Positions 3,929 through 39,490 of a stretch of DNA of 64,000 nucleotides are shown one piece after another (position 1 is the first letter of the stretch; every line of letters begins with the position of its first letter). The notes beneath the pieces are model-generated. The model was not told where the DNA came from, did not search any database, and saw nothing but the letters and a program-made list of their open reading frames with translations. The translations under genes were made by a program, and so were the position numbers. Source of the DNA: a virus; IMG/VR virus record IMGVR_UViG_3300021400_000020, positions 32,964 through 96,963 of that record, one strand, 5' to 3'.

Positions 3929-3957
3929 CCACCGTGCCCGAAAGTTCTGCTTTCGGG
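3929..3957 (+). repeat. type-A hairpin element (CCACCGT box + CCCGAAAG/CTTTCGGG stem)
   Basis: CCACCGTGCCCGAAAGTTCTGCTTTCGGG: an 8-bp stem and a 5-nt loop. Confidence 0.85.
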
Positions 3958-3960
3958 ATT

Positions 3961-3996
3961 CCCATTCATCAACCCCATCAACCCCATTTTCCCATG
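3961..3996 (+). repeat. CCCAT/CCCCAT repeat array running into the ATG at 3994
   Basis: CCCATTCATCAACCCCATCAACCCCATTTTCCCATG. Confidence 0.75.
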
Positions 3997-4158
3997 ATTC
4001 TACTACTTATCATCGGCTCCCTCGTCTCAGCCATTATCGACATCCTCTTGAAGAGACGTAACGGCTTCACGACCGAAGAGCAAGCCCTGCTCCAGTCGAA
4101 CAGCATCAACGAGGACGAACTCCGAGAACTCCGCAAGAACCTCTCCAACTTCAGGTAA
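3994..4158 (+). CDS. small membrane protein (54 aa)
   Basis: MILLLIIGSLVSAIIDILL gives an N-terminal TM helix. It lies in the frame of track ORF 3721..4158, but its start sits directly after the hairpin/CCCCAT cassette. Confidence 0.5.
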   Translation: MILLLIIGSLVSAIIDILLKRRNGFTTEEQALLQSNSINEDELRELRKNLSNFR

Positions 4159-4162
4159 TCCA

Positions 4163-4228
4163 CCACCGTTCCCGAAAGTTCTGCTTTCGGGTATTGTCCT
4201 TCTCAGTACCCGAAAGTTCCGCTTTCGG
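4163..4228 (+). repeat. type-A hairpin followed by a type-B-like hairpin
   Basis: CCACCGTTCCCGAAAGTTCTGCTTTCGGG (hairpin 4171-4191), then TCTCAGTAC + CCGAAAGTTCCGCTTTCGG (4210-4228). Confidence 0.85.
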
Positions 4229-4230
4229 TT

Positions 4231-4264
4231 CCCCATCAACCCCATTAACCCCATCAACCCCATG
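4231..4264 (+). repeat. perfect 9-nt periodic array CCCCATCAA CCCCATTAA CCCCATCAA CCCCATG
   Basis: Read directly from the sequence. The final unit contains the start codon of the 4262 gene. Confidence 0.9.
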
Positions 4265-4558
4265 CTTACACTCAACGATATCCGCAAACTGCAAGGTCCA
4301 GACTCCGACATCGAATGGACTTGCACCTCCATCAGCGAGGAACTGTCAGAGACATGCAGGAACTTCTTCACCCTGCCCATCCTCCTCACACTCTTTTTCA
4401 AGTTCGAAGTAGAGTGGGAGGGACACCTGCTCGAAATGCAGCAGAACGCATCCAACGTAAAGCTGCGACTCGACAACCGAACTGCCACCATCCCCGTCAA
4501 CACCCGTGGCTACGTCACCTCCTCCGACTACGCTCAAGCATTTGCCTCCCTTGTCTAA
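4262..4558 (+). CDS. hypothetical protein (98 aa)
   Basis: The ATG is embedded in the last CCCCAT unit. This is the last + strand gene before the convergent junction. Confidence 0.5.
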   Translation: MLTLNDIRKLQGPDSDIEWTCTSISEELSETCRNFFTLPILLTLFFKFEVEWEGHLLEMQQNASNVKLRLDNRTATIPVNTRGYVTSSDYAQAFASLV

Positions 4559-4591
4559 TTCCGTTGTTTCCCTGCAATCCTTTTTCTCTCG

Positions 4592-4656
4592 CCACCGTCC
4601 CCGAAAGTTTCGCTTTCGGTCTTTGATTTCTCAGTACCCGAAAGTTTTGCTTTCGG
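4592..4656 (+). repeat. type-A + type-B hairpin pair
   Basis: CCACCGTCCCCGAAAGTTTCGCTTTCGG (4601-4619), then TTTCTCAGTAC + CCGAAAGTTTTGCTTTCGG (4638-4656). Confidence 0.85.
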
Positions 4657-4667
4657 CACAAAAGCGA

Positions 4668-4704
4668 GGAAGTGACAACAACCGTTGCCACTTCCCTGCT
4701 TTTT
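4668..4704. terminator. bidirectional terminator at the convergent junction
   Basis: GGAAGTGACAAC [AACC] GTTGCCACTTCC pairs at 11 of 12 positions. TTTTT lies downstream on the + strand and TTTT downstream on the - strand. It sits between the 4558 (+) and 4717 (-) stops. Confidence 0.55.
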
Positions 4705-4716
4705 CGTGTTTGTCAA

Positions 4717-7700
4717 CTATCCTCTACCTCTGCGTTGCATGAACCTTTCAGCCTTCTTCATCCGCTGACGAACTCCATTGTCGCCATACATGTCCACGTG
4801 GGCATCAATGCCAGCTTCCAACTGTGCATGAAGGGCTTTGAGCATCGCGGTATTCGCGGCAATCAAAGACTGCATACCTTCCATGCTGTCACCACCATCG
4901 TCCACCGCTGCACCCGCATCGGTCGTTGTGCCAATCTCGTCAAGATTGCCATCCGCATAAGTGGCAACACCTCGTTGCTTCCTCCGCTTCGGATAGTTAG
5001 GAATGACACCCGTCTTACTGAGCACTTGAATGTTGTCCCAGATTTCAGGGTAGTTCAGAACCAGCTTCTGCGTCGTTGGTCCATCAATCACGGCTTCAGG
5101 CATCTTCTCTGAGAAGATACCATAATGCGCACCACCTCGGTAAATCTTCGTCTGTAGCTTGTCCTCGCGCTTAGCCATGTAAGTCTCACCATCTGCACCC
5201 AACACAGGATAACGACCTTCAGCATAGGTGAGGAAACCTGCTTTCAACTGTCCCGAACTGGCTCCCGTGGCAGCGGCTACCTCGCTCTTGCTCTTATTGA
5301 TAGCACCTAAAGCGAGTCCTAACAGCGAACTCAAAGCAAGACTGATGGCAGCACCGATGGCGAGACCCAGCCAGCCTTTCTTGGCAACTTCTTGCGATGT
5401 TCCTTTTATGCCACCAACGGCTGCTTCTGCCGTGCTCGTACTGCCTTCCACTTCCAGCTCGGCAATCTTCTTAGCACCGTAGTCCGCTAAGCTCTTTTGA
5501 CGAAGGGCTTGTATCTGCGTTTGCTTCTGCGCTTCAAGTTGCACCTCCATCTGGTCCACCGTGCGCTTGGTGCTGACTTGTATCAGATACTGCTGAACCA
5601 AGTTCTTGGTCGTCGTCAACACGTCGGTCAACAACTGCTTGGCGGCATTCTGGCGGTCTTCCTTGCTACCAAATACACCCTCGCCGAAACTCTGGGCAAA
5701 ACTGCTCATCTCATTGCTGTATTCCTGCAAGGTGTCGAAGTCTCGTGCTGCACGCTCCACCATCTTCTGCATATACTTCTCTTGCAAATCGGTCATGGCA
5801 GTGTAGCTGTCACTCAGAGCGATATTCTGCTCCTCCTGCAACTCCCTCACCGACATCTGCAAGCTGGCGCGACGTGCCTCTAACGACTGAATCTCGTTCT
5901 CGGCTGCCTTGCGCTCTTCGTCGGACATAGAACTGCTGCGACGGGCATAGTCCAACTCCTTGGCGGCAAGACGGGCAGTCGTCTCGGCTTCCTGAGCCTT
6001 CATGTTCTCGATGTGCTTGTCTGTCTCCTGCTGCAAGAGGGCGATATAGGCTTTCTTGGCTTCCATCTGAGCATAAATCACGTCTATCTCAGCATTGGCG
6101 GAAACCAACTCACCACCAAAGCCCCAACTGCTGGCATAGTTCGCGGCAGTCTGCCCCGACTGGCTTCTGCGCTCTCGGTCTTCGGCTAACTCGCTCTGAG
6201 TCCTGCCACCAAGTCCCTCTTCCCTGCGACCTGTCCAAATCTTGTCAGCCACACGGGTGTACTCCTTGGCTGCCTTGCGCTCGGCATCGATGATGTCGTC
6301 GGAATACTGCTGGAGCTTCTGAAGAAAGGCGGTCAACTCGGCATCGGCATTGTCTCCTAAGCCCTCAAACCACACGTGGTAGATATTATCCTCCTTGCGC
6401 ATGGCTTCTTTCAGCTGCTCGATGGTCAGGGAATAGGCATCCCTCGCCCATGTCTGCAACTGCGCCAGACGCTTCTCGGCTAATGCCTTCGTGCGCTCCT
6501 CGGCTTCTTCGTTGATACCGAAGATAAAACCGATGGTGTCCATCGACCGACGAAACTCTTCACGCACCTTGCCGGTGAAGTCACCCTCAAGAAGTATCTT
6601 CTCGATGGCATCCTTGTGCTTGTGAATAATCTCCTGTATCTTGGTAGCATCCTCCTGCATCTTACGGGTGGCTCCGTCATACTCACTGCGCACATCATAC
6701 ATGAACTTCTGAATCAGGCTCCAATTCGCCTTTCTCAACTTCAGTTCATTGTTCCAGTGCTCCACAAACTGCTTGCTCTCCGTGGCGTTGAGCTGCTTCG
6801 TCCACTGCTTTCTCAACTTCATCCTGTCAGCCAACCAGACAAGTTCATTCTCGTTGTTCCTGCGCTCGGCTTCCTCCTCGGTAATGGATTCCTCGGCTAA
6901 CCGCTGCTTGATAAGGGCTTCACGCTCCTGGTAGTAGGCATCCAACTGCGCGAGAGTGGCATCACGCTCGTCTTTTGCCTCACGCTTCCATTTGTCCTTG
7001 TCACGATCGCTATTCTTGTCACTCTTATAGTTGCCTTGAATTGTGTCGTGGCGACGGTCAAGCTCTGCCTTCACCTTGTCATACTCTTCCTTCACACTTC
7101 TCTGAGCATCCTCCATGCTCATACTGTCATCAAGCACTCCCTTCTTCACGAGGTCGGCATAAATCTTGCTGAATTGCTGCCCCACTTTCAAGCCGTTCTC
7201 AACCACGCTGTCCAGATAATCAGCATAGTTCTTCAAGGTCTCGGTATCCATTTTGTCAAGGGTGGTACCATTCTTTCCCCATACATTCGGATGGGCAATG
7301 TCCTCCCACTGATTACGTACCTGTCCTTGCAGATAGCGGTTGTTGTTCTCCACACGCTGAAGCACCTGACCGCTCATCCGTGGACCTGCCTGATGAGCAA
7401 GGTTCTGATAGTCGGCTGAGAGTTCAACGAGACGCTGGGCTAACTGCTGACGTTCTTTCTTGTCGGTACTGCCATTGAACTGCTTCTGCAAGTTCTGAAT
7501 CTCCTTGAGGGTGCTATTCAGCATCTTCAAGGTGTCTTGGTAGCTACGGGTGACAGCTTCGTCCATCTGAGCACCTGTACTCTCTGCAAGACGCACACGC
7601 TCACCACGCTCCTTCACAAGGTCGTTCCACAACTTCTTGATGTCGTCGAAATTATCATAGATGGCATCCTTGGCAGTCTTGTTCAGCTTCAAGCCACTCT

Positions 7701-10700
7701 GCGTAATGAGATATTCCATCATGTTACCTTGACGCATGTTCTGAACGCCCCAGTTGTCCTGGCTGTTTTTCAACTCCGACTTAGGAAGGGCATCCACCAG
7801 TCGCTGCATCGTCCTACGAAGCGCACTCTCAATGACACTCGTATTGCGGTCGCCTACTTCCTCGGTCAACTTGTCGCGCACGCCCGTCCAACGGTTTTCA
7901 CGAGTCGTTCCATACTTCTCTTCCAACAGCTTTTCAGCGGCTTCCTGCTTCTTCAGCACGATAGTTTCACGAATCTTGCTGTTCAGGAGGTCACGGGCTT
8001 GCGTCTGGTTCTTTAATAGGTTCGTCTCGCTAAGTTGAAAACCGAGGTAGCTCTGCATCACGCCATTTAAGTCGTTAATCGTCTTCTTCAACTCTCGATG
8101 GCTATCTACATTCTGCTCATTGTTCTTGGTGAGCTGGGAAATACGATCCGAGAGTTGACGACTCTTTGCAATCATCTCGTCCTCCTCCTTGGCGGCGGCA
8201 GCGATGGCTTCGTTAAACTCCTTTGTGGCTTCTACTCCCTTGCGGATGTACTGAATCAACTTAATGATACCATCAAGCACAGCGAATACAATAAAGGTCT
8301 TGAGTGCCGACTTCAATCCTTCTATCGCCACCTTGAATGTCTGTGCAGCTCCTTGGGCTGCAACCAGCCGCTGCCAGAACTGCTTGAGGGCTCTGCTACC
8401 ATGTTCCAAGGCTTGACGAAACTTCGTGCCGATATTCAACTGAAGGGAAATCAACGTAAGAATAAGCGCCTTGATGGTGGATTGCCACGAGACGATACTC
8501 TGAGAACCTTTCTGCATCCACGAAAGGAAATTGCCCAAGCCCTTGATGATACCATTGAAGAAGTCATAGATAACACTGTTGGTAAACAGCTCATTGAAGG
8601 CATTTCTCAGTCGGGCAAGACTACCTGCGGCATTATCCTGCACCTTCGTGAACTCACGCGACATCACACTCACATTGCCCATACCGACGGTGGCACTCTC
8701 ATAACCCTCACTGGCATACTGCAAGGCATCACCCAAGGCAGCGGTATTTGTCGCCAGAGAACTGAGCGTCATCGCCAGTCCTGCACTCTGTTTCATGCGT
8801 CCTGTACCCACGGCATTCATCACCTCCTGCACCTTACCTGCCCTGTCTTCGGCATCCTCAATCTTTTCCAACACGGCAACCAAGGCTTCATAGCTCTTGC
8901 CCTCGTCAATCAGACTTTGCAGATAGGTAGGAGCCAGCTCTGCGGCTTTCGCCATCTCGAAGGTGTGGTTCATCACGCCACGAATCAAGTGTATCAAGGC
9001 GGTACTGCCCTGCTCTGCACTGATACCGACGGCATCCAAACGTCCTCCCAAGGCAATCAGTTGGGGCATGGTCATCTTGGCTGTAGCACCCACTGCGCCA
9101 AGTCTTCTCACGTACTCCATGATACCCTGATAGCTGGCGGCGGTATTGTTACCGAGGTTCAGAATGGAACTACCTGCGGCATCCAAGGCTTCGCCAACAT
9201 CGTCACCATGTTTTTTCGTCTCACCCAGCACGTCATTCACCTTTGCCAGTCCTGCAATGGCTTCCGCTCCACCAATATCTTCACCAAGGGTGGCATTGAT
9301 ACGTTCACCCATCTCCACGAAACCCTTCATGCCTTCAAGCCCATGCTCGGTATAGATACCTAACTTACCTGCTTGCGTGGCAAACTCCATCAGGTCGTGG
9401 GTGGTGGTGCGGGTGTCGAGGTCCTGCAAGCTCTTCGACAAGCGGCGCACCTCCTCAGTCGTCATGTTCGTTACCTTCTGCACATTCGTCATCTGGTCAC
9501 TGAGTTCCATGATATGCCCGAACTGCTTGCGTACCTCGTTCATGATGGCATTGAAGCCCAGATAGACGGCGATATAGCTTTTGAGTCGGTTGATGGCGCC
9601 ACGAATACCACTTTGATGATGTGTCCAAGTTTCTGTCAACTCCTTCATCTGCTTGTCAATGGCTTTCATCTGCGCCGCCTTCGCTATATACTCGTCCTGC
9701 GTCAGTTCTGTATTGTTGATTTCGAATTTCAGACGCTTATACGCCATCCTCAATTCGTCGATATTCTTCACACCCTTTGGGTTTTTAAGAATTTCATCAA
9801 ACCGCTCGGCAGTCAAGGTGGCAGTCTCCTGCAACATGTCGAGACGCTGTAACTCGCGCTCAACGGCAATGATTTTTTCTTGTCCGTCCTTGCTCGTCAC
9901 GTCAAGCGTACTCTTATAGGCACGGAGTCCATTGCGTAAGCGGTCGAGGTCGGTCAACGTACCCTTGAAGCCATTGCCGCTGTTCACATTCTCCAAGTAT
10001 TTCTTGGCTTCCAGCACACGGTCATTGGCTTGCTGCAAGTCGGCAGTCATCTTGCGGATAGTTTCATCAACCCTCGATAAACCTCCCTCATTGGTGGTCT
10101 CCAAGTTCTCCCTGTACTGCTGCAAGAGCTTGATATTCTCCTGAATCTTGGTGGTACTCTGCGACCCCGATGTGTAGTTCATCGCTTGCTGGGCTTTGTC
10201 TTCCAACGAGGTCTGCGCACGATGCTGGATGGTGTCGTTGATGGCTTCCAACTGGTTCTTCACCCGCTCAAGCACCCGCTCTTCCATGTTTCCGGCATCC
10301 ACCATGCCCTGCAAGAAACGTTGCACATCCGACAACTGCTTGTCGGTGGCGTTGCCGATGTCGGCAAGGACATTTCCTCCACCTGTCTTCATCCAGTTAC
10401 TGAACTTAACGCTGTTGATGCGCTTCTCATAAATCGCCCATTGCGATTGGGTCTTGGCAAGGGTCTGCTGCTCCTGCTTCAGCACCTCAATCACACGCAA
10501 ATTCGTGGCAACACTGTTGTTGGAGGCGTTCTCGCTGGTTTGCCAGACAGATTGAAAACCTGCCTTCAGTTCGTTCAAGCGGTTCTTGATGAGCTGCATC
10601 ACCTCCGACTTACGGGCAAACTCCTCGGCGGAAACGCCCGACTTCTGAACCTCGAAACTCAGACGCTCGTAGGCTTGCTCCAACTCCTTCACACTGCGCC

Positions 10701-17587: not shown

Positions 17588-20500
17588 ATGAACCAGTTAG
17601 CTCTCTATATCGACTCCATCCCCGTCTGTCTGGATGACGACCAATCAATCAAAATAGAATGGATTTCTCCTGTCTGGAACCCCGAATCTAACGGACTGTT
17701 TTCTTACAACTTCCTGCTGAGCTGCGAGGCAAACCGCGAACTCTTCGGCAATATAGATGAACTGCACGGACAGTCCATCTATGAACGACTGCACGAGAAG
17801 CCGTTCTCGCTATACGTCAAAGGACTGCCTTTCTGCACGGGAAAGGTAGAGGTGGAAGCGGAGGTGGAGATAGAAGAGGGTCATATCCCCATCGCGCTCG
17901 TCTCCAACGGTCAGGAGCTGTCTAAACTCATAGATGGTATGAACTGCCAGGATGTACCAGTCAAGGACAAGATACCCGTGGGAACGGTGTTCGACCATCT
18001 GGAGTGCGCATTACAATACGAACTGGAAGGAGACTACTCCGACACAAACGCATTCATACGATTCGTCACGCATGTCGAGGAAAGGAACGGACATACATAT
18101 CCTATCACCTATTCGGAGATGGAAGAGGATTTCGACATCGCCATCCCTGAAAACGTGTTTGCCATCAACCGACATTCCATGAGTGGACGGGAACAGGACT
18201 TCGAACACATGGTGTCGGACATCAACGTGTCGTTGCCATACCCTGCCGCCAAGTTCTGCAACGTGCGAACCTGCATACAGCGAAGGGTCAAGGATGAAGA
18301 GTCGAACTCGTGGAAGTCTGTTCGACAATACGATGTGTTCGACCCCGTACTCGACGAGGAAAATGCTCTTCAGCCTACGGAAGAGGACATCGAGACAGCA
18401 CGTAACTCCAGAATACCGCTCTACGGCACTTGCTTCTATGTGCCTTATTTTTTCGACTGCCTCTTTCAGCATATCAACGTCTATGTCAAGTCGAACCGAC
18501 TCACGGACATGGACGACTACAACCGACTGGCGTTCTTCACGACGCAGTGCAACTACGACAAAGGGACGGCTCGCGTGGTGTTTCGCTCTCAGGAGAGATT
18601 TGCAGACAGGTACGGACTCGAAATCAAGGAAGTGGCAAGCGCCATCCGAGAGACGCATTTACAGTACGTAGCAGTCGGCAATACGGTCTATGCCAACTCG
18701 AAGAACTTCCCGAATAAGGATGTGAAGGAGGTGATGGAATCCATACAGAACGCCTTCTGCGCACGATTCGACTATTCCAGCGATGAGCAAGCCATCGAAA
18801 TGTACTACGTAAAAGACATCCTCGAAGATAACCAGCAGCACGACCTCAATATCGAGGTGAGCGAGGTGCACAAGGGCGAGAACCTGGTGCGTGGCTTCAG
18901 ACTCAGGTACGGAGGTGACGACGGAGACACATCCTACAACTACCAAGACTTCTTCAAGTCACAGCTACAGTCCTACAAGTACATATCGGCATCGGTTAAC
19001 GACGACACATGCTACATTGATCCGACAACGGGCAACGCTTACCGAACCAAAATCAACGAGGAAGCAGAGGACGTGGATGAACTCTACCCTGTACTCGTCG
19101 AAGTGGGACAATACAACGCCGCAGAGGACGGAGACTGCACGGACAGCGACTACGTGGAGGAACTGACGATAGGCTTCGCGCCCGCCATCGTGAATGCAGT
19201 CGTATTCAGCGAGGACGACGACGAATCAAAGTCTTCTGGTAGGACTGCCAACAGGACTTCGAGCCAGGGGGAGAGGGAAGAGAGTCATAGCACAACGCGA
19301 TATGCGGTGCTGATAGCAGAGGAAATAAACGGACTTGAGGAAAAGACAGTGCCTGTGAAATACCTCACCACCTATGGACCGAAGCGCACCATCGACGGCA
19401 GGGTTTTTTATGATACGATGACTTACCGCTGTAGCTATACCTTCAAGGCTCGCTACTCCTACCGTGAGGCTTATCTGAAAAAACTGGATGAAGCCTACAG
19501 CGCACGCGACGGACGCTCCTACGACGCTAACGGAAACAGAGAGCAGACATCGCAACGCACCATCAACAAATACACGACATTCTTCACGCCTTACGAGGAT
19601 TCCCCTTTCCAGAACTATGACGCAGGATTCACGCTCGGCATCATGCGAGGACCTGGCAACGCGGGCGGCGTGGAAATCTTCGATACCAACTATGACGGTG
19701 AAGGAAACAGCAAATGGAATACCGTACCAAAGGACTATGCCTTTCATATCGACACGCTCGACTACGAGGGCAGTGTTTTCGACTATAACGGTACGGAGGA
19801 ATCCATCGGTGGCGAACTGGAAAACCGCTTCTCGCTCAAACTCAGGGCGGAGAAACAAACCCCTGCTGGCATCTACCATCAGCGTACCATGCACACCGTC
19901 GAAAGCCAAAGCGACGCAATCGACTTGCTCAACACGTACTTCTCGGACGGGAATATCACGACACACACGGGCGTACACCAGACATTCTACAACGAAATGC
20001 TGCTGGCAGGATGGTCAATGTCGGAATACTCAGGACAACGCACCTTCGCTACGCTACTGACAACAAGGGATAAGAAGAATCGCGAGAGACGACTGCTCAT
20101 CACACCTATCATATCTTCTACCCTCGTACTCACACCAGCGGAATTGGAGGATTACGTGAACGAGCATATCCGCTATGCAGAGGATTTTCTCGCTGCCGAC
20201 ACACAAGGACTCATCATCCGCGTGGATGCAGACTTCATCGATGCAGCCACATACATACAACTCGCCAATATCGCTTACGGCATTACTGACGTGTCGGAGG
20301 TGAGCGGACGAAGCAGGAGAGTGACGAACATCGCCATCGCACAGAAGATAGAGTCCGACTACTACCCTGTCGAACCGACAATAGCAGCTTACCGTGGACT
20401 CATGGACAAGTTTTATTCGGCGTATTCCTACTGGATTCGACACCGAAATACGGCATTCATCACGGGACACATGGAAATAGCCGACCTTATCAACATCGAT

Positions 20501-22580: not shown

Positions 22581-22648
22581 CCACCGTTCCCGAAAGTTCT
22601 GCTTTCGGGTTCAGAAAAAACCACCGTTCCCGAAAGTTCTGCTTTCGG
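22581..22648 (+). repeat. two type-A hairpins in the leader of the methyltransferase gene
   Basis: CCACCGTTCCCGAAAGTTCTGCTTTCGGG (22589-22609) and CCACCGTTCCCGAAAGTTCTGCTTTCGG (22630-22648). Confidence 0.85.
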
Positions 22649-22669
22649 TCATCAGAAAGAAAGAAATCT

Positions 22670-24558: not shown

Positions 24559-24734
24559 CCACCGTCCCCCGAAATTTTGTTTCGGGTTTCAAAAGCCACC
24601 GTTCTCAAAAGTTTCGCTTTCAGGTTCCCCTCTCCACCGTCCCCGAAAGTTCTGCTTTCAGTCCTTCGTTTCTCCGTACCTCTCGGCTCAGCCGAGAGCC
24701 CACTCATAAAAACCATTAACCCCATAAACCCCAA
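24559..24734 (+). repeat. composite cassette copy 1 (3 type-A hairpins + type-B CTCTCGG hairpin + CCCCAT units)
   Basis: Hairpins at 24568-24586, ~24603-24623 (degenerate), 24642-24660 and 24680-24698, then CCATTAACCCCATAAACCCC. Confidence 0.85.
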
Positions 24735-24740
24735 AAACAA

Positions 24741-25262
24741 ATGGCAAACACTTACCTCAAAGAACCCTACGTTCACCCCAAAATCGAGCTGAACGAATCA
24801 GACTACAAGCGAATCCTCAGTCTGGCACGAGCAAACGCCAAGCAGATTGAGAAACGAGCGCGAGAACTATACGAGCAATACGGCGTGTTCGAAGTCCGCA
24901 TCCGTGCAGAAGTCAGAAAAACAAACATCGGTTGCGATGACCTGAAACACTCTTACGAACTGGACTGCAAGCCATCCTCTCTCTATATCTATGCCCCATC
25001 GATGGATGACAACACCGACAAGCCACTCGTCTTGCTGTCTGAGGAAGAGAGAAGAAGAATTTCAGTCTTTGCTACTAATTACGTGAGAAGCTTGTTCGAT
25101 ACTTGCTTTGGCGAAAACCTTGCCAGCATCAATAAGGCACATTCATACGAGCGTTCGGCTCGACGCACATGGAAAATCACCTTCCTCTTCACCATCTTAG
25201 GATGGCTCGTAGCATTCGCATTCTTCGTTTTCTTATTTCAAGTTTACTTTCATGGGAACTAA
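24741..25262 (+). CDS. hypothetical protein with a C-terminal TM helix (173 aa)
   Basis: ATG ORF after the cassette. C-terminus ITFLFTILGWLVAFAFFVFLF. Confidence 0.55.
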   Translation: MANTYLKEPYVHPKIELNESDYKRILSLARANAKQIEKRARELYEQYGVFEVRIRAEVRKTNIGCDDLKHSYELDCKPSSLYIYAPSMDDNTDKPLVLLSEEERRRISVFATNYVRSLFDTCFGENLASINKAHSYERSARRTWKITFLFTILGWLVAFAFFVFLFQVYFHGN

Positions 25263-26402: not shown

Positions 26403-26549
26403 CCACCGTTCCTGCCACCGTTCCCAAAAGTTTCGCTTTCGGGTTCCCCTCTCCACCGTCCCTGAAACTTCTGCTTTCAGTCCTTCGTTTCTCCGTACCT
26501 CTCGGCTCAGCCGAGAGCTTTCTCACCAAACCCATTAACCCCATCAACC
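26403..26549 (+). repeat. composite cassette copy 2
   Basis: About 110 bp nearly identical to copy 1 (AAAGCCACCGTT...GGTTCCCCTCTCCACCGTCCC...CTGCTTTCAGTCCTTCGTTTCTCCGTACCTCTCGGCTCAGCCGAGAGC). CTCTCGG hairpin at 26499-26517, then CCCATTAACCCCATCAACC. Confidence 0.85.
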
Positions 26550-26557
26550 AAAAAACT

Positions 26558-26833
26558 ATGACACCTGCAACCATCATTCTCACAGTCTTCCTGATACTGG
26601 CGGTTTTTGTTGCTGCACAGCTCGACGACAAACTTCTCAAGGAACGCCACGTCACTAAGGGACTACTCGAACAACTGGGACAAGCCAAGGCTCAGACGAA
26701 AGACCTTGAAAAACGTCTTCAAGAAGCCAACACAACCATTCAGAAGCTCAATCACAAGCTCGAAGCTTGTGGAATCGATTACGACAGACTCCTGACCGAC
26801 TACCACCGTTTGGAAAACGAAAATCTAAAATGA
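26558..26833 (+). CDS. small membrane-anchored coiled-coil protein (91 aa)
   Basis: N-terminal TM segment TPATIILTVFLILAVFVAAQL followed by a heptad-like helix. Confidence 0.55.
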   Translation: MTPATIILTVFLILAVFVAAQLDDKLLKERHVTKGLLEQLGQAKAQTKDLEKRLQEANTTIQKLNHKLEACGIDYDRLLTDYHRLENENLK

Positions 26834-27103: not shown

Positions 27104-27131
27104 CCACCGTCCCCGAAAGTTCCGCTTTCGG
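27104..27131 (+). repeat. type-A hairpin
   Basis: CCACCGTCCCCGAAAGTTCCGCTTTCGG (hairpin 27113-27131), followed by AACAACCCATCAACAATG. Confidence 0.85.
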
Positions 27132-27150
27132 TCAAAACAACCCATCAACA

Positions 27151-27796: not shown

Positions 27797-27901
27797 CCAC
27801 CGTTCCTGAAAGTTCTGCTTTCAGTCTTTCGTTTCTCCGTACCTCTCGGCTCAGCCGAGAGCCTTCTCACCAACCCCATTAACCCCATCCCCCCCCCCAT
27901 C
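27797..27901 (+). repeat. composite cassette copy 3, ending in a C10 tract
   Basis: CCACCGTTCCTGAAAGTTCTGCTTTCAG (27806-27824), TTTCTCCGTAC+CTCTCGGCTCAGCCGAGAG (27843-27861), AACCCCATTAACCCCAT, then C x10 (27889-27898), then ATCATG. Confidence 0.85.
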
Positions 27902-28324
27902 ATGGAAATAGCAATCATCATCGCATTCGCTGTCGTCTTACTCCAAGCCATCGTTATCTTCGGACTTGGAAAGCGATACACCCAAGCAATCAAGCAAATC
28001 AAAGAGATGGAACTTGACCTTCAAGACCATATCACTGGCAGCGACAAGGACGCACGAACCATCACCGCCCTCAGACGTACCATCAATGAAATAAAGACAT
28101 TCCCTAACGATTATCCTCCTATGGAGTGGACTCAAAAGGACGAATCTATATGTAATTCCATCCTCTCCGATTTGGATCAAGAACTTAAACAGGCAATAAT
28201 AAAAGGGTACGACGCTGTTTGTAAAGAGAAATTGGACTGGCTTCAGTCCATCAGAGAAAGGATTAGACTCCAAATGAATCTCTACACAGACATAAAGAAT
28301 TCCCAAACCTCCAATCATCCGTAG
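27902..28324 (+). CDS. membrane-anchored hypothetical protein (140 aa)
   Basis: MEIAIIIAFAVVLLQAIVIFGLG gives an N-terminal TM helix. The ATG is 3 nt after the C10 tract. Confidence 0.55.
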   Translation: MEIAIIIAFAVVLLQAIVIFGLGKRYTQAIKQIKEMELDLQDHITGSDKDARTITALRRTINEIKTFPNDYPPMEWTQKDESICNSILSDLDQELKQAIIKGYDAVCKEKLDWLQSIRERIRLQMNLYTDIKNSQTSNHP

Positions 28325-28342: not shown

Positions 28343-28912
28343 ATGAAGAAAGCTTATTTCAGCAAGAGGTACGGACTTCGGCAAGCCGTTTTGAAAAGAC
28401 GAAAGACCAAGACTCGGCGCATCATCAAAGGCGACTTCGAGAACGTGACCGCGTACCATGCAAATGGAGTTTGGCACTTTATCGCAGACACAAAGGATGG
28501 CGACTCAATCGAATTGAAACCAGCCTTTCAAATTGGCGAAGTGGTTGCCGTGGCGCAAAGCTATGCGAGTGCTATCAATCCTCTTGATTGGGCAAATAGA
28601 TTGATATACAAAGACACACCTGGCTGGAACAATGCTTTATACACCCGTCCCGACCTCATGCCCCATTGCATCCGCATCACCGACATCAAATGTGAGCGCT
28701 TGCAGGACATCAGCGACGAGGATTGCATCAAGGAAGGATTGCTTGTAGGCGAAACAGACCCAAAGATGTATGGTTTCAAGGTTGGGAAGCACGTTAATAG
28801 TTATATGTCTCCTCGCGAAGCCTACGCTGTCCTCATCGACCGCATCTGTGGCAAAGGCACATGGAACCGCAACCCTTGGGTATTCGCTTACGGTTTTGAA
28901 CTCATAGAATAA
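28343..28912 (+). CDS. possible ASCH-domain-like protein (189 aa)
   Basis: RRKTKTRRII ... IRITDIKCERLQDISDEDCIKEG resembles the ASCH-family pattern (GxKTxTRR ... V.VERLQDISEEDA..EG). Recognised by eye. Confidence 0.45.
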   Translation: MKKAYFSKRYGLRQAVLKRRKTKTRRIIKGDFENVTAYHANGVWHFIADTKDGDSIELKPAFQIGEVVAVAQSYASAINPLDWANRLIYKDTPGWNNALYTRPDLMPHCIRITDIKCERLQDISDEDCIKEGLLVGETDPKMYGFKVGKHVNSYMSPREAYAVLIDRICGKGTWNRNPWVFAYGFELIE

Positions 28913-28914
28913 TT

Positions 28915-28941
28915 CACCCCATTATCCCCGTCAACCCAATG
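28915..28941 (+). repeat. degenerate CCCCAT array running into the ATG at 28939
   Basis: CACCCCATTATCCCCGTCAACCCAATG. Confidence 0.65.
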
Positions 28942-29361
28942 GAAAGAAGACTACTCCCTGTCTATTACGGATGGGCAAAACTTAACAAGATAGCCAAGCG
29001 TGAGGCTTTGACGGTCGTCTTTCTTAATGACTTCACATCGCCACGCACCAACAAGGACGGCTACGATGGTGTGACACGATACATCGACGTGTGCGCCATG
29101 AGATACCAGACGGATGCAGAACGGGAGGATGCAAAGCTCTGCAACCGCATCTACACCGTCTATAGCATCTTCATGGATGACAAGCACATCCGTGGAAGTT
29201 TGGCAGCCGCCCTCCATGCCAACTTCATGGCTGACAAGAACAACGTCAGCGAGAAGGACAGAAAGGAAATCATGGAGAAGCTGAAGACTCACTACATAGC
29301 AACCCATCGAGGCTACAGAGAGCCAAGAGGCTACCAACTAAGTATTGAATTTGAAGATTAA
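28939..29361 (+). CDS. hypothetical protein (140 aa)
   Basis: ATG ORF after a CCCCAT-type leader. Confidence 0.55.
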   Translation: MERRLLPVYYGWAKLNKIAKREALTVVFLNDFTSPRTNKDGYDGVTRYIDVCAMRYQTDAEREDAKLCNRIYTVYSIFMDDKHIRGSLAAALHANFMADKNNVSEKDRKEIMEKLKTHYIATHRGYREPRGYQLSIEFED

Positions 29362-31456: not shown

Positions 31457-31525
31457 ACGAGTTTCACGGATGGCACGAAAATCCTTTCCGTAGGATATAA
31501 AAAAAACAAAGCATTGAATTTGATT

Positions 31526-31552
31526 AACCCCATTAAACCCATAAACCCCATG
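31526..31552 (+). repeat. CCCCAT-type array running into the ATG at 31550
   Basis: TAACCCCATTAAACCCATAAACCCCATG. Confidence 0.8.
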
Positions 31553-31975
31553 AGCCAACCCATAATCGACAGGAACCAGCGTCGATACGAAATCGCAAAG
31601 GAAATGCTGCCTACCATCATGCGAACAGCATCCGCAATATTAGCCTGTGGACACGAACTCGGACCCGAAGCAGAAGGAAAGACGCTTGCAGAATACTGTG
31701 CCGAATCCGCATGTGCGTATGCGGATGCACTTATCGCAGAACTAAAGAAGTCAACGGAAAACTTGACGCCAGTCGTAACGGACACCAAAGAAGTTGCCAT
31801 TGGACAGGTCATAGAATTCGATGGCGTAAAACTGATATGTGTAGAATTGCCAGAGGGAGTACATGAGTGTACGGGATGCGCATTCTATAACTCAGGCAGC
31901 TGCAGATACAAAGGTCCATGTAGTTTCACAACCCGCACCGATGGCAAGGAAGTGATATTCATTCACAAAACTTAG
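31550..31975 (+). CDS. hypothetical protein (141 aa), Cys cluster near the C-terminus
   Basis: The ATG is embedded in the last CCCCAT unit. The track start at 31514 would translate the repeat (NLINPIKPINP). Confidence 0.55.
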   Translation: MSQPIIDRNQRRYEIAKEMLPTIMRTASAILACGHELGPEAEGKTLAEYCAESACAYADALIAELKKSTENLTPVVTDTKEVAIGQVIEFDGVKLICVELPEGVHECTGCAFYNSGSCRYKGPCSFTTRTDGKEVIFIHKT

Positions 31976-32892: not shown

Positions 32893-33114
32893 ATGATATA
32901 TATCTATAGAACTCTTTGGGCGATATTCTATATCCCCATCTTCCTGATGGAATGCGTGGCATTCGTAATAGGCTGTCTTTCTTACCCATTTATTGCTTTT
33001 GTTTACTATGTCAAGCATGGCTCAACCATAGGTCTGAAATGGGCAGGTGACACAATAGCATTTTGGATCGAGAAAAAATATCAGAACCTAAGAACATACA
33101 TCGAAACATTATGA
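32893..33114 (+). CDS. small membrane protein (73 aa)
   Basis: Two hydrophobic segments (WAIFYIPIFLMECVAFVIGCLSYPFIAFVYYV). Confidence 0.5.
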   Translation: MIYIYRTLWAIFYIPIFLMECVAFVIGCLSYPFIAFVYYVKHGSTIGLKWAGDTIAFWIEKKYQNLRTYIETL

Positions 33115-34453: not shown

Positions 34454-34882
34454 ATGACAGAGAAAGAACGAAAGGCAAGAATAATGAATGGAGCCAGTAA
34501 TTATATGACTGGAAGGGCGATGGCACTCTCCTTTAAACCGCTTTCATTACAAGATGTGAAGGATGCTTATATAAGCGGAGCTTACGACATGGAACAACTG
34601 ATCGACTCATCGATGTGGTGGAAGATTGCAGACGACGAACTACCCAAGATAAACAGAGAAGTGATAGTTCTTACGTCTGACGGGACATTAGCATACGCTC
34701 ATCGTCCACAAGAATCATTTAAGGGGAGGACTATTGCTTCAGGCATAGATGAAATAATCACCCCTACACGATACGGAAGAGGACAATGGAATATCCCCAA
34801 CGTCCTATTCTGGCTCGACATCGAAATTCCTGACATCAAAGACTACTTGGAGAGAACAAAACAATCCTTCCAAATCCTTTAA
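34454..34882 (+). CDS. hypothetical protein (142 aa)
   Basis: ATG ORF. The last codons (SFQIL*) are encoded by the AAATCC leader repeat. Confidence 0.5.
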   Translation: MTEKERKARIMNGASNYMTGRAMALSFKPLSLQDVKDAYISGAYDMEQLIDSSMWWKIADDELPKINREVIVLTSDGTLAYAHRPQESFKGRTIASGIDEIITPTRYGRGQWNIPNVLFWLDIEIPDIKDYLERTKQSFQIL

Positions 34883-34920
34883 ATCCCTGATAAAATTAAA
34901 TCCCAGATTAAGACAATAGC
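34866..34920 (+). repeat. ~55-bp AAATCC leader repeat, copy 1 (ATA in place of ATG)
   Basis: CCTTCCAAATCCTTTAAATCCCTGATAAAATTAAATCCCAGATTAAGACAATAGC. Confidence 0.85.
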
Positions 34921-35940: not shown

Positions 35941-35976
35941 CCTCTACGGAGGAAAGGAGTTGTTTTTAGTGAGGAA

Positions 35977-36066
35977 TTTTTACTTTTTACTTTTTCATTC
36001 AAAATCATTCCTTCCAAATCCTTTAAATCCCTGATAAAATTATAAATCCCAGATTAAGACAATGGC
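35977..36066 (+). repeat. TTTTTAC heptads plus AAATCC leader repeat copy 2, ending in the ATG at 36062
   Basis: TTTTTAC TTTTTAC TTTTTCA (35977-35997), then CCTTCCAAATCCTTTAAATCCCTGATAAAATTATAAATCCCAGATTAAGACAATGGC. Confidence 0.85.
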
Positions 36067-36514: not shown

Positions 36515-36517
36515 AGA

Positions 36518-36989: not shown

Positions 36990-37129
36990 TAGCCGATGAA
37001 TCATCAACCTCCTTTCATCAAAAAAGGGAATAAATTGGGAAATATTTAAAATTGCAAATCAACCGATGTAGCATAACGAATGCGAGGCTCATCCCCTGAT
37101 GGTGGTTCCAACCCACCCATCGGTTTTTC

Positions 37130-37225
37130 AGTTTTTCCGAACCAAGTTCCGCTTTCGGTCCTCCCTCTCCACCGTTCCCCGAAATTTTGTTTCGGGTTTC
37201 ATCAACCCCATAAACCCATCAACAA
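37130..37225 (+). repeat. partial composite cassette (degenerate hairpin, type-A hairpin, CCCCAT units)
   Basis: ...CTCCCTCTCCACCGTTCCCCGAAATTTTGTTTCGGG (37178-37196), then TTTCATCAACCCCATAAACCCATCAACAAATG. Confidence 0.8.
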
Positions 37226-37816
37226 ATGTCCTCACCAAACACCCAAACAACCCAAGACACCCTCATTTCCCGCCCCACATTCAAATACAATATCGGGGAT
37301 ATACTCAAAATAAACAACATTAGTAGTTTTGTTTCTTCTGACCTAAACAAAGAGTACAACGACAACCTGCAGGTTATTTTCCGATTCTATGATGGAAACA
37401 ACAATAACGTCTATATAGTGGAATGCGAAGACGGCTTTGCTTTCACACTCTGTGAGCAAGAAGCAGACTTGGTTAAACATTCCACAGTCCCGAACACACC
37501 ACCTGACAACAAACCAGTGAATAGCCGTCAACTCGACGAGGAAACCTACCAGGCACTGAGACGTTTGGGTGTGCTCGACACATCTGTCCGTTCCTACAAC
37601 CGAGGCAAAAGCGACTATTCGCGCCACATCATCCAACCGTGGAGCATCTGGCAAGAATACAACTTGAACCCGTGGGATGCCGACATCGTGAAGCGCATCC
37701 TCCGTACCAAACAAGGGGACAGCCGACGACTCGACTACGAGAAAATCATCCACATCTGCGAAGAACGCATCCGACAAATAGAATGCGAAGCAGAGAATCC
37801 ACAGCATAAGCATTGA
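37226..37816 (+). CDS. DUF3310-like phage protein (196 aa)
   Basis: YSRHIIQPWSIWQEYNLNPWDADIVKRILRTKQGDSRRLDYEKIIHICEERI matches the DUF3310 pattern as I recall it. Confidence 0.55.
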   Translation: MSSPNTQTTQDTLISRPTFKYNIGDILKINNISSFVSSDLNKEYNDNLQVIFRFYDGNNNNVYIVECEDGFAFTLCEQEADLVKHSTVPNTPPDNKPVNSRQLDEETYQALRRLGVLDTSVRSYNRGKSDYSRHIIQPWSIWQEYNLNPWDADIVKRILRTKQGDSRRLDYEKIIHICEERIRQIECEAENPQHKH

Positions 37817-37829
37817 TGAATCCATCGGC

Positions 37830-37875
37830 TTTCTCCGTACCTCTCGGTTCTGCCGAGAGCCTACTCATCAACCCC
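37830..37875 (+). repeat. type-B hairpin + single CCCCAT unit
   Basis: TTTCTCCGTAC+CTCTCGGTTCTGCCGAGAG (37841-37859), then CCTACTCATCAACCCCATAAG. Confidence 0.85.
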
Positions 37876-38125
37876 ATAAGAAAGCATTATAGATTTCTTC
37901 ATAATTCAGTTCGGACTTGTCTGCGAAGATAGGAACGAACGCCTCGCATAACCCTTGCCATTGAGCAAACAACATATCTCTCAGGCTTACCACAGCCCGC
38001 AGAGGGGATAATGGTACTAAACAGGATTCCCCTCCATTTCAGAAATCCCTTCAAACCCTAAAAATCACAGACACATACGTCCCCGTGGTGTTTGGCAGCT
38101 GGGAAGGGGTAGCAGCCTCGGACTA

Positions 38126-38134
38126 CCCCCCCCC
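38126..38134 (+). repeat. C9 homopolymer tract 21 nt upstream of the ATG at 38156
   Basis: Counted directly in GACTACCCCCCCCCAG. Confidence 0.9.
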
Positions 38135-38155
38135 AGTTTTAATACACAACTTCAC

Positions 38156-38407
38156 ATGGTAATCATCGACGGAAGAAAAATATATGAACAACCTGCGTGC
38201 TGCGGACAATGCCCGTTCCTCTTCGACTACTCCACACACATGACCCCAGCCAAAGGACCATTGCCCTGCACACTCTTCAACGAAATGCACAGATACATGA
38301 CCACCCCTCCACGCCGCTGCCAAAAACTCTTTAAGAAGGCATTCGAGTATTTCAACGACAGCGGCATCGACCTCTCCATCGTCAAAAACCAAAACAAAGA
38401 ACAATGA
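38156..38407 (+). CDS. Cys-rich small protein (83 aa)
   Basis: ATG ORF. Contains ACCGQCPF ... C ... RRC. Confidence 0.45.
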   Translation: MVIIDGRKIYEQPACCGQCPFLFDYSTHMTPAKGPLPCTLFNEMHRYMTTPPRRCQKLFKKAFEYFNDSGIDLSIVKNQNKEQ

Positions 38408-38790
38408 AACTCTATATCTCCACACCCATCAACGCACGTTCGGAAGCTACCTTCCAAGAGAAGTACGAGACAGCTCGGAAACGTGTGGAAGAAATCAAGG
38501 AACAACTGCCATCCATCTACCAGGAATGCTACGACATCGTTTCCTCCTTCGACCTGAACCCACTCGGAACCTACACCGAAGCGGAAGCAATGGGAAGATG
38601 TATCCAAGCCGTCATGGAGTCCGACGCCATCCTGCTCGACGATGGTTGGGTGACATCCCAAGGATGCTGTCTTGAATTCCGCACAGCGGAAATCTACAAC
38701 AAAATCATCTATTCCACCAGCCCCAACAACCCCATCAATCCCATGAACCCCATCCTCCCAGATGGATTTCACAACAAATCTTATGTTTAA
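38404..38790 (+). CDS. DUF4406 / nucleoside 2-deoxyribosyltransferase-like protein (128 aa)
   Basis: MKLYISTPINARS ... SDAILLDDGWVTSQGCCLEFRTAEIYNKIIY fits the DUF4406 pattern. The ATGA overlaps the upstream stop. The C-terminus is encoded by CCCCAT-type repeats (PNNPINPMNPI). Confidence 0.5.
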   Translation: MKLYISTPINARSEATFQEKYETARKRVEEIKEQLPSIYQECYDIVSSFDLNPLGTYTEAEAMGRCIQAVMESDAILLDDGWVTSQGCCLEFRTAEIYNKIIYSTSPNNPINPMNPILPDGFHNKSYV

Positions 38791-38807
38791 TTGACCCCAT
38801 CCACTAC

Positions 38808-38843
38808 AAAAAAAACGGTCCTTGCCTCACGACAAGAAACCGT
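38808..38843 (-). terminator. rho-independent terminator of the - strand lysis operon
   Basis: In - sense: ACGGTTTCTTG [TCGTGAGG] CAAGGACCGT followed by TTTTTTTT. Confidence 0.55.
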
Positions 38844-38875
38844 CCAACGTAATTCAAAAACTAACTAACTTTTAA

Positions 38876-39424
38876 CTAAAATAATCTATAGTACACGCCT
38901 ACCCCAACAAACGGCTCGGCGTTTTTGTTCTTCATTCCAAGACCAACACCACCCATCACACCAACACCCCAACGCGGATATTTCTTGATAGTAATTGTCT
39001 GTGTGTTGGTAATGATCGTCGTTCGCATCCTCAGTTCAATGGAGTCCAGCTTTGCATGATAGCCACTGACCCAAGCCCTATATAGACTATCCTCATAGAT
39101 TGTCTGCTCAATCGGTATCTCCACCTGAACACTGTCCATCATCTTATTGGCGTCAATAAGATGGTCGTCTTTCTCAGTAAGTGTCGGTTCTGCCGACACC
39201 TTCAGATACCCCACTTCGGTCCTTACCTGCATACTGTCCGTCGGTACGGGCTCGCGCACCCTCACGGTGTCATGCACCGTCACCGTGTCACTCACCGTCA
39301 CCGTGTCCCTCGTCTCCTTGAACACAACACTCGGCTCATAACAACTGCGCACACAAATCACAGCCAGCACAATCACAGCCAGCACCCCAATCGCACAGAG
39401 CTGCATCTTTGCTATATCCTTCAT
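38876..39424 (-). CDS. membrane-anchored protein at the end of the lysis cassette (possible spanin-like), 182 aa
   Basis: N-terminal TM segment LCAIGVLAVIVLAVICV. It lies directly downstream of the endolysin. Confidence 0.35.
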   Translation of the reverse strand: MKDIAKMQLCAIGVLAVIVLAVICVRSCYEPSVVFKETRDTVTVSDTVTVHDTVRVREPVPTDSMQVRTEVGYLKVSAEPTLTEKDDHLIDANKMMDSVQVEIPIEQTIYEDSLYRAWVSGYHAKLDSIELRMRTTIITNTQTITIKKYPRWGVGVMGGVGLGMKNKNAEPFVGVGVYYRLF

Positions 39425-39442
39425 AACATCTTGCTTTTAGTT

Positions 39443-39490
39443 ACCGTTCCCGAAAGTTCTGCTTTCGGGTAAAAGAAAGTTCCGTTTTCG
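39443..39490 (+). repeat. type-A hairpin (TACCGTT variant) + degenerate half copy
   Basis: TTACCGTTCCCGAAAGTTCTGCTTTCGGG (39449-39469), then TAAAAGAAAGTTCCGTTTTCG. It lies between two - strand genes but in + orientation. Confidence 0.85.

Follow-up and report, generated by a model that had tools for sequence, protein, structure and literature searches.

A Strand-Oriented Box-and-Hairpin Repeat Common to an Uncultured Phage, Bacteroidales Chromosomes, and Conjugative Elements

Why does a phage genome carry dozens of short hairpins, each preceded by a nearly constant box and scattered after genes, ahead of genes, and inside them? The question is raised by a 64,000-nucleotide (nt) stretch of the IMG/VR virus record IMGVR_UViG_3300021400_000020 (positions 32,964 to 96,963; here, the window), which belongs to a metagenome contig of 97,040 bp. 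The initial annotation of the window described about 20 copies of a CCACCGT box followed by a hairpin (type A), considered them unsuited to a simple terminator role, and implied an RNA element specific to the phage. The repeat family is confirmed as real and far beyond chance, and its members also occur in Bacteroidales chromosomes and conjugative elements. The reading that we favor, and to which we give an even chance of being right, is that the units are a DNA hairpin repeat that belongs to the host lineage, is strand oriented, resembles repetitive extragenic palindromic (REP) sequences and Rickettsia palindromic elements (RPEs), and has colonized the phage.

Where 5.0 ± 2.1 copies of the heptamer CCACCGT are expected, the window contains 28 (a number that none of 100 shuffles reaches), and 25 of them lie on the plus strand. 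A unit is present at every coordinate listed in the initial annotation, with offsets of only 1 to 2 nt (16660, 26453, and 39441), and the contexts named there are correct: directly or shortly after stop codons (3929, 4163, 26403, and 27797), in the leader of a methylase gene, in the divergent region 17347-17490, and inside a coding sequence (CDS). The type A unit consists of the box CCACCGTY, one or two bases, and a perfect 7- to 8-bp hairpin with a 5-nt loop of the form TTYYG; the window holds 18 complete units and 4 truncated ones (12905, 12927, 17347, and 26403), and there are box-less remnants at, for example, 12984, 37138, and 39475. A scan for all perfect hairpins in the window yielded a second type, B, which is TTTCTCCGTA (box TTTCTC[CA]GTA) followed by a hairpin and is present in 13 copies, all on the plus strand. 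Type B shares the loop of type A, with stems that are quite different (CCGAAAG, GCGAAAG, CTGAAAG, GCAGCGG, CTCTCGG, and GTGTCGG), and the earlier description had left type A unconnected to this element of the same geometry.

The 18 type A and 13 type B units (n = 31) align without gaps, revealing a common layout of a 7-nt box (YCNCCGT), two nucleotides, a 7-bp stem, and a T-rich 5-nt loop, with unit sizes of 29 to 38 nt. A covariance model of the A and B units (R1), run over the window with filters off, recovers 32 units at 32 bits or more, every one of them on the plus strand; the best match on the minus strand scores 14 bits. Density amounts to 0.5 units per kb over the window and rises to about 1.5 per kb between 22.5 and 28 kb, and the 25-kb late gene block at 41 to 64 kb has no units. 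A 142-nt cassette in the order A-A-B is present in three copies, each ahead of a different gene.

Within the 31-unit alignment, 88.7% of the stem cells are paired; shuffled alignments give 66%, with none of 500 as high as the real one, and slid controls give 22 to 55%. Fifty stem cells are compensated, compared with 12 in shuffles, and seven of the eight stem pairs have changed on both sides, which bears out the earlier suggestion that compensated stem variants betray a constrained structure. This covariation, along with the many further stems found at other loci, supports the view that the hairpin is under structural constraint.

The orientation of the units follows a strict rule. The next 10 kb of the contig contain 13 more units, all on the plus strand, which brings the count to 45:0, and roughly a third of these 45 lie in minus gene blocks or antisense inside genes; the orientation does not flip between the plus and minus gene blocks of the window. 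Likewise, all loci with several units, whether in host chromosomes, in elements resembling conjugative transposons (CTns), or in viral contigs, are co-oriented (as many as 12 of 12 units at a single locus). In 33 of 37 cases, made up of 19 of 22 independent loci from the initial scans and 14 of 15 viral contigs, the units lie on the C-rich strand, and at the same loci the sign of the AT skew follows gene direction, whereas that of the GC skew does not. Along the phage contig, the GC skew of the plus strand is negative almost throughout the window and also in the two flanks, a coverage of about 84 of 97 kb with one sign. Stems are 96% Watson-Crick; among 97 distinct copies, 650 stem cells are Watson-Crick pairs, and G·T and A·C cells number 7 each. 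Because an RNA element would be expected to tolerate G·U on its own strand, the equality of G·T and A·C indicates pairing of the DNA type. Co-orientation, the C-rich strand, and Watson-Crick stems therefore argue for a constraint that acts on DNA and tracks how the two strands of the replicon differ, not the direction of transcription, and we infer that the rule is tied to replication itself.

The doubt cast earlier on a simple terminator role proved well placed. The 8 nt that follow the hairpin contain 0 to 5 T (mean, about 2.7) and thus no U tract, copies reside in a leader and in CDSs, and canonical terminators composed of a hairpin and T5 stand beside units at 4662-4705 and about 37095-37135. 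The terminator at 4662-4705 has an upstream A tract, which makes it bidirectional, and sits between convergent gene blocks; that at about 37095-37135 precedes the A units at 37131/37169. Judged from sequence, the units are not canonical intrinsic terminators. Promoters of the host type, for which the Bacteroidota consensus is TAnnTTTG (PMC7366714) with TTTG upstream, were searched for in the cassettes formed by A, B, and leader, and none was seen. The promoter at 22500 is the sole one of this type observed in the plus block from 22.6 to 38.8 kb; a separate one serves gene 17588 and lies downstream of the B units. An Rfam scan of the window returned no relevant match at the gathering threshold or at E ≤5, and a scan of a 206-nt cassette slice returned only chance matches at E ≤10. 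Two other interpretations were rejected: a reading of the box as the −35/−10 elements of an extracytoplasmic function (ECF)-type promoter, for which no conserved partner element was apparent by eye in the flanks, and a CRISPR repeat or RNA anti-CRISPR mimic, since spacers are missing from the arrays and host CDSs contain units.

Where else does the family occur? A 20-nt-specified pattern, for which we estimate about one chance match in 596 Gb, matched 28 genome contigs, nearly all labeled Bacteroidales (Prevotella, Bacteroides, Phocaeicola, Parabacteroides, and Leyella), and more than 113 gut-metagenome contigs. Most often, and in an identical arrangement in many genera, the unit follows traG, in a gap of a CTn-like conjugative element, and the units in the tra operon of this element are all antisense to the tra genes. 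In chromosomes of Prevotella/Bacteroidaceae genomes, units are located between aroE, purM, and prfA, after ruvB, and around nadC, with one to three in most of the gene gaps examined; they directly follow the stop codon, 10 to 20 nt ahead of the next start, and are sense to the flanking genes. These host units are of the AGCCACCGTTCCCGA...TCGGG type and take the form AGCCACNGTTCC plus a hairpin whose stem is very diverse under the constant box (CCCACGG, CCGACG, CCCAGCGG, CCCTGCAA, CCGGCG, and others). Type A thus does not appear to be phage specific, and the family most likely resides in one Bacteroidales lineage, that of Prevotella-like hosts, and in the mobile elements of that lineage. It had been considered from the start that the motif might be a host REP-like element with no enrichment in phage: the former part stands, in that type A is REP-like in Bacteroidales chromosomes and CTn-like elements, but the latter is not established, in that the phage is dense in units and has a box B of its own.

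Units also persist within coding sequences. In a cobalamin gene cluster of five genomes, they lie inside CDSs in a frame that always reads Ala-Thr-Val-Pro-Glu/Asp (ATVPE/D). The two A units inside the phage gene for a 588-amino-acid (aa) portal-like protein (16660 and 16696) encode ESEGRTFGNGNLLPENQIFGNGGE, a 24-residue stretch, in a hypervariable and indel-rich linker that is missing entirely from some homologues. The cobalamin genes (L029 and also L015, L007, L018, and L021) carry 0 to 3 in-frame units, which are translated as ATVPEA..SG linkers, and the number of units varies by genome.

Among viruses, a looser pattern detected units in 15 further IMG/VR contigs, and in the comparison of A and B across loci, type B was seen only in the present phage lineage. 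Distant relatives of the phage, with about 45% identity in the portal protein (L144-L148), contain no A or B units, which argues that this lineage acquired its load of repeats recently and that they are not ancestral regulation. These relatives, on contigs of up to about 100 to 140 kb, encode ParA beside the portal gene, with a Rep_3 initiator domain in L144 and L145 and a weak DnaA_N-like match in L147 and L148, and by their gene content would make up a large gut-metagenome family of elements resembling phage-plasmids. Megablast and blastn searches with the region and the cassette found no match among INPHARED phages, a search of PLSDB gave one 32-nt match, in a Phocaeicola massiliensis plasmid, and an IMG/VR search with the 1,009-aa protein encoded at 17588-20617 gave no relatives. 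Literature searches on the box sequences, on REP and REP-associated tyrosine transposases (RAYTs) in Bacteroidetes, and on stem-loops of Bacteroides phages turned up no description of the element.

Presence/absence polymorphism of individual copies, which had been proposed as a point to check, is evident among both strains and genomes. Three phage strains that are 95.5% identical over 10 kb (L150, L151, and L152) have 13, 8, and 9 units; among the indels that distinguish them, one of 38 nt removes a single unit cleanly, and another, of 195 nt, comprises four B units of 51 nt, a variable-number tandem repeat (VNTR). In a relative (L114), the two B units of the window (17395-17484 region) are replaced by three. 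A second relative (L089) is without gene 3482-3928 and the unit at 3929, carries another module, of 560 nt, after an additional unit, and joins with the window sequence at units (3472-3993 and 4229-4259). In the cobalamin genes of L029, L015, and L007, an orthologous site holds 0, 1, and 2 units, and in-frame indels of 27, 39, and 60 nt occur among the five genomes. Terminal inverted repeats beyond the hairpin arms were not seen, though no systematic search was made. Gains, losses, and replacements bordered by units amount to the pattern known from the promoter early stem-loops (PeSLs) of T4-type phages.

How might a host REP/RPE-like repeat have produced these distributions? Synthesis or copying of the unit would take place in DNA and on one particular strand, through a single-strand hairpin that replication exposes; such copying would explain the single orientation per replicon and the preference for the C-rich strand. 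The repeat lands in gene gaps, mostly just past stop codons, is tolerated inside genes only when in frame and in permissive linkers, builds tandem and truncated arrays, and turns over quickly between strains. Transcription of the phage units would be passive, the units being carried along in long early mRNAs or lying antisense to late genes. What they chiefly provide may be portable homology flanking small accessory genes, by which modules could be duplicated, lost, or swapped, and some protection of mRNA ends may come in addition.

Several observations weigh against this account. The diversity of host stems under a constant box looks more like a selected functional signal than like recent copying and pasting, and the one to five further units found in each 8-kb host stretch give a density that is biased upward, because the stretches were chosen for holding a match. 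Type B stands regularly 32 to 41 nt upstream of four ATGs, as the last element before a C-rich AACCCCAT leader, hinting at a role in expression. The link to GC skew is a correlation on short stretches, and none of the loci seen combines a skew flip with an orientation flip, the phage having one sign over about 84 kb. No flanking duplication was seen in alignments of the 27-, 38-, and 60-nt unit indels, whose junctions were not examined systematically, and no signature of an empty site was defined. Finally, a Pfam search of the 59 window proteins found no HUH/Y1, RAYT, or other transposase domain, and tblastn for IS200 TnpA or RAYT, a search of weak sensitivity, gave no match in 1.39 Mb of sequence.

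Could the units act instead as RNA cis-regulatory sites of early transcripts, in processing, 3'-end protection, or antitermination, with A read by a host factor and B by a phage factor? A linear box beside a short hairpin with a 5-nt loop resembles the boxA and boxB of lambda nut, and 22 of the 32 window units are sense to plus genes, as are the chromosomal host copies to the genes that flank them. Two A units lie in the leader that follows the one host-type promoter in the 22.6- to 38.8-kb plus block, B keeps its 32- to 41-nt distance from four ATGs, and the computed RNA hairpin is stable (−12.6 kcal/mol, z −4). We nonetheless consider this explanation unlikely, given that the other window units (about 10 of 32) and several in L150 are antisense with no plus-strand promoter nearby, that the CTn tra-operon copies are all antisense, that G·U shows no excess over A·C, that positions and numbers differ among 95%-identical strains, that copies lie within coding sequences, and that the domain search of window proteins returned no NusG-like, sigma, or RNA-binding domain. 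The phage-specific RNA element implied by the initial annotation is not supported, on much the same grounds: copies exist in hosts and CTns, about 10 of 32 are antisense, G·T equals A·C, and orientation tracks the C-rich DNA strand. Less likely again is a strand-specific DNA signal for the replication or protection of mobile replicons, either a priming hairpin or a polar signal like Chi, whose Escherichia coli sequence, GCTGGTGG, resembles the box complement ACGGTGG. Absolute co-orientation on the C-rich strand of phage, integrative and conjugative elements (ICEs), and viral contigs would suit such a signal, as would Watson-Crick stems, a DNA hairpin computed at −8.7 to −9.7 kcal/mol on either strand, and enrichment in mobile replicons (ParA is encoded by the contig and its relatives, and Rep_3 by L144 and L145). 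Copies in housekeeping CDSs and gain and loss from strain to strain are hard to square with a function of this kind, however, and the 25-kb late block is without units. Known priming hairpins number one or few per replicon, not 45, and Chi needs no hairpin; boxes without a hairpin show no strand skew (5 on the plus and 3 on the minus strand), which speaks against a Chi-like reading of the box alone.

A proposal restricted to type B, and somewhat more doubtful still, holds that B, or the whole cassette of A, B, and leader, is a phage-specific promoter or regulatory cassette, similar to a PeSL or to the hairpin promoters of N4, that is read by a phage polymerase or factor. The confinement of B to this phage lineage, its place as the last element before the AACCCCAT leader and ATG at a constant distance in four cassettes, the lack of any observed host-type promoter in the plus block from 24 to 39 kb, and the presence beside the A-B-B region of a 1,009-aa protein of no recognizable family are all compatible with it. 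But B also occurs where no gene follows (4628 and 37831), antisense in or beside minus genes (12658, 12727, 13021, 39171, and 40732), and as VNTRs of 51 or 60 nt whose number varies among strains; searches of the window proteins revealed no polymerase or sigma domain, and gene 17588 has a host-type promoter of its own downstream of the B units. The least likely reading, which we regard as very improbable, is that the units are unusual intrinsic terminators or attenuators of Bacteroidales that dispense with the U tract. Many copies do follow stop codons, in phage and host alike, and their hairpins are stable, but this reading has to contend with the 0 to 5 T in the next 8 nt, with copies in a leader, in CDSs, and 16 to 20 nt before the next ATG, where there is no room for a promoter, and with canonical hairpin-plus-T5 terminators nearby, and it leaves the conserved box unexplained. 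Moreover, Bacteroides terminators are predicted by the standard model of hairpin and U tract (PMC7366714).

A bolder extension of the host-repeat reading is conceivable though doubtful: the units may represent an undescribed class of strand-oriented single-stranded DNA hairpins that spreads through chromosomes, CTns, and phage-plasmids without a recognizable HUH transposase, with box B domesticated and read by a phage factor and with cassettes of A, B, and leader both controlling and shuffling early genes. If the units are indeed a REP/RPE-like repeat of the host lineage, an uncultured phage or phage-plasmid of about 97 kb is tied to a host lineage through a common repeat, a kind of link that is rare and useful. 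Bacteroidales, of a dominant gut phylum, would gain a REP/RPE-like family with an unusually clean strand rule, and the copying of hairpin repeats, a long-open question, would become directly testable in them. Host-type repeats could also serve as recombination joints of a phage accessory region, as PeSLs do in T4-type phages, and the case would caution against annotating such hairpins as terminators or riboregulators.

The gene content of the window is arranged in four blocks, on the plus strand at 66-4558 and 17588-38790 and on the minus strand at 4717-17264 and 38876-64000. The phage genes include a head protease/capsid fusion, a tape-measure-like protein of 2,425 aa, a tail-fibre-like protein, and an endolysin, and the contig also encodes a DarB-like protein, ArdC, ParA, and HU. 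The 153-aa protein encoded at 62522-62983 is found on at least 22 contigs. Promoters of the Bacteroidota type precede several phage genes, and the capsid protein has distant homologues among the capsid proteins of phages of Flavobacterium, Porphyromonas, and Cellulophaga, which places the host in Bacteroidota. An Rfam match to c4-2 RNA (RF02944) at 3375-3457 on the plus strand (42.5 bits versus a gathering score of 41; E = 9e-6) is preceded by host-type promoters at 3274 and 3333; with the DarB-like protein, ArdC, ParA, and HU, it suggests a P1-like phage-plasmid lifestyle with antisense-RNA immunity. A diversity-generating retroelement (DGR) at 42287-44430 on the minus strand comprises a reverse transcriptase (42287-43780), a template repeat (43565-43689), and a variable repeat (44306-44430) that forms the C terminus of a 2,146-aa protein (44291-50731). 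All 11 differences between the template and variable repeats fall at template adenines, and the retroelement is complete and, by these features, working. It has its own small hairpin after the variable repeat (ACACGC-TTTA-GCGTGT), and no sign of a DGR was found near units at the host loci examined; a relationship of the units to DGR hairpins was therefore rejected.

Other repeats accompany the units. C-rich repeats with a 9-nt period (AACCCCATN) reach right to the ATG of many plus genes, which is odd for Bacteroidota, since leaders there are A-rich and have no Shine-Dalgarno sites (PMC7366714); analogous 9-nt repeats (GTAGTAAAT and GACAACAAA) stand ahead of genes in the CTn loci. The CTn-like element also contains a second family of box and hairpin (CAGCCCCCGTG plus CTCGCCG-TGTCAG-CGGCGAG), about 50 to 80 nt from each type A unit and on the same strand. 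Two further families in gene gaps of the window, AGAAATCCTTTCAAATCCTTTAAATCC and TTCACTTTTCACTCTTCACTTTT, lie upstream of minus genes when read on the minus strand, as GGATTT... and AAGTGAAAAG... repeats. The tape-measure-like gene has direct repeats of about 150 nt that are 75 to 78% identical (10004-10351 versus 10937-11335). Between the B and A units of one minus gene gap, at 12760-12850, are the imperfect hairpins GGTTTCCACG-CTCT-CGTGAAAACC and GAGTCTCAATT...AATTGAAACTC, beside a minus-strand host-type promoter at 12860, and this region may be a small RNA locus. Coordinates of the units and of most of these repeats are collected in Table 1.

TABLE 1 Positions and contexts of repeat units and accompanying repeats (window coordinates unless a locus is named)
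Feature	Position	Strand	Context
Type A unit	3929-3957	+	Directly 3' of stop of gene 3482-3928
Type A unit	4163-4191	+	4 nt past stop of gene 3994-4158
Type B unit (TTCTCAGTA + hairpin)	4200-4229	+	32 nt upstream of ATG 4262
Type A unit	4592-4620	+	Beyond last plus gene of left cluster
Type B unit	4628-4657	+	Followed by canonical bidirectional terminator 4662-4705, no gene
B 12658-12687, box variant 12691-12722, B 12727-12756	12658-12756	+	Gap between two minus genes; antisense to local transcription
Two truncated 22-nt left halves (12905, 12927) and complete type A 12949-12977	12905-12977	+	
Type B unit	13021-13050	+	Ends 1 nt short of stop end of minus gene 13052-13627
Type A units 16660-16688, 16696-16724	16660-16724	+	In frame, antisense, within 588-aa portal-like open reading frame (ORF) 15498-17264 (−)
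Truncated box 17347, A 17359-17387, B 17395-17424, B 17455-17484	17347-17484	+	Divergent region; 60-nt VNTR
Two type A units	22581-22649	+	Leader between promoter TAtaTTTG (22500) and C5-methylase ATG (22670)
Cassette A-A-A-B (A 24559, 24596, 24634; B 24670)	24559-24699	+	Followed by AACCCCAT leader, ATG 24741
Cassette of truncated box 26403, A 26415, A 26453, B 26489	26403-26518	+	Truncated box directly after stop codon; paralogous to cassette 24595-24736 (91% identical)
Single type A unit	27104-27132	+	Between two plus genes, 18 nt upstream of ATG 27151
Cassette A 27797 and B 27833	27797-27862	+	A directly after stop codon; 39 nt upstream of ATG 27902
Box-less remnant 37131-37162 and type A 37169-37197	37131-37197	+	28 nt upstream of ATG 37226
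Type B unit	37831-37860	+	3' of gene 37226-37816; no following gene within 500 nt
Type B unit	39171-39200	+	Antisense within minus ORF 38876-39424
Type A variant (TTACCGT box) and box-less remnant	39441-39495	+	Between two minus genes
Type B unit	40732-40761	+	5' edge of minus ORF 40704-41081, antisense
Cobalamin-gene units	L029 4260-4400, 4770-4850, 5700-5765, 6590-6630		
Second CTn hairpin family	L012 ~5200-5230 (2778-2804 after reversal)	−	
Second CTn hairpin family	L111 1222, 3832, 6091 (after reversal)		
C-rich 9-nt repeats AACCCCATN	2525-2569, 3957-4001, 4224-4277, 24704-24748, 26523-26558, 27867-27902, 28910-28945, 31512-31565, 37198-37217, 38705-38763		Ahead of plus genes
Repeat families AGAAATCCTTTCAAATCCTTTAAATCC/TTCACTTTTCACTCTTCACTTTT	13625-13762, 34858-34898, 36002-36042, 38041-38066, 63805-63904; also 12003-12060, 15460-15503, 35956-35999		

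Several known systems share features with these units. Like lambda nut (boxA and boxB) and the pause hairpins at Bacteroides opsX (PMC11685472), they place a conserved linear box beside a short hairpin in the leaders of long operons; those sites, however, are few per genome, are always sense, and act on RNA or on the nontemplate DNA of transcribing polymerase, whereas about one-third of the copies here are antisense (about 10 of 32 in the window and all in the CTns) and some are in CDSs. The stoperators of mycobacteriophages follow the direction of transcription in each arm of the genome, unlike the present units, whose orientation is constant across plus and minus blocks. A closer parallel is provided by the PeSL cassettes of T4-type phages, in which recombination between promoter/stem-loop repeats shuffles accessory genes (PMC2839356 and PMC4122927). 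As in those phages, repeated and co-oriented stem-loop cassettes flank small accessory early genes, and strain junctions fall at cassettes; but PeSLs combine a strong sigma70-like promoter with an effective terminator, whereas the units described here have neither TAnnTTTG nor a U tract, and their core also occurs in the host chromosome.

Host repeats within phage genomes have a precedent in MITEs (miniature inverted-repeat transposable elements), which were found in about 0.2% of the viruses analyzed (vMITEs), including Prevotella and Bacteroides phages, and which are rare and help in host assignment (PMC11602168). Both are short, nonautonomous host repeats, but the present units are far shorter, are confined to one strand, and reach an unusually high copy number (at least 45). 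The ends of IS200/IS605-family elements, and derived palindrome-associated elements, combine a subterminal hairpin and a short recognition sequence next to it, are handled as single strands, and show replication-biased orientation. To these the units bear a resemblance only; neither TnpA nor TnpB was found here, and there are no paired left and right ends.

The nearest relatives in kind are RPEs and REPs. RPEs are 100 to 150 bp long and confined to Rickettsia; like the present units, they insert in frame at tolerant sites of CDSs as well as in gene gaps and are present in some relatives and absent from others. The present units differ in being about 30 to 38 nt long, strictly strand oriented, and common to phages and ICEs, and in occurring in Bacteroidales. 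With REPs and the bacterial interspersed mosaic elements (BIMEs) or REP doublets forming hairpins (REPINs) built from them, the units share a short palindrome with a conserved asymmetric 5' box (here YCNCCGT, at a fixed distance from a covarying 7-bp stem), a location in gene gaps just past stops, tandem arrays, and cotranscription, and the REP/RAYT mechanism is thought to act on single-strand hairpins. They lack the inverted pairs of REPINs and BIMEs, being all direct (45:0 in the phage and at every multi-unit locus), and no RAYT was found among the 59 window proteins or by a weakly sensitive tblastn search of 1.39 Mb. Compared with REPs, moreover, their stems are perfect and very diverse, their density in phage and conjugative elements is high, and their hosts are Bacteroidales. 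Being shared by host chromosome, CTn, and phage, absolutely co-oriented, and accompanied in the phage alone by a sister box, the family is unusual within the REP/RPE kind.

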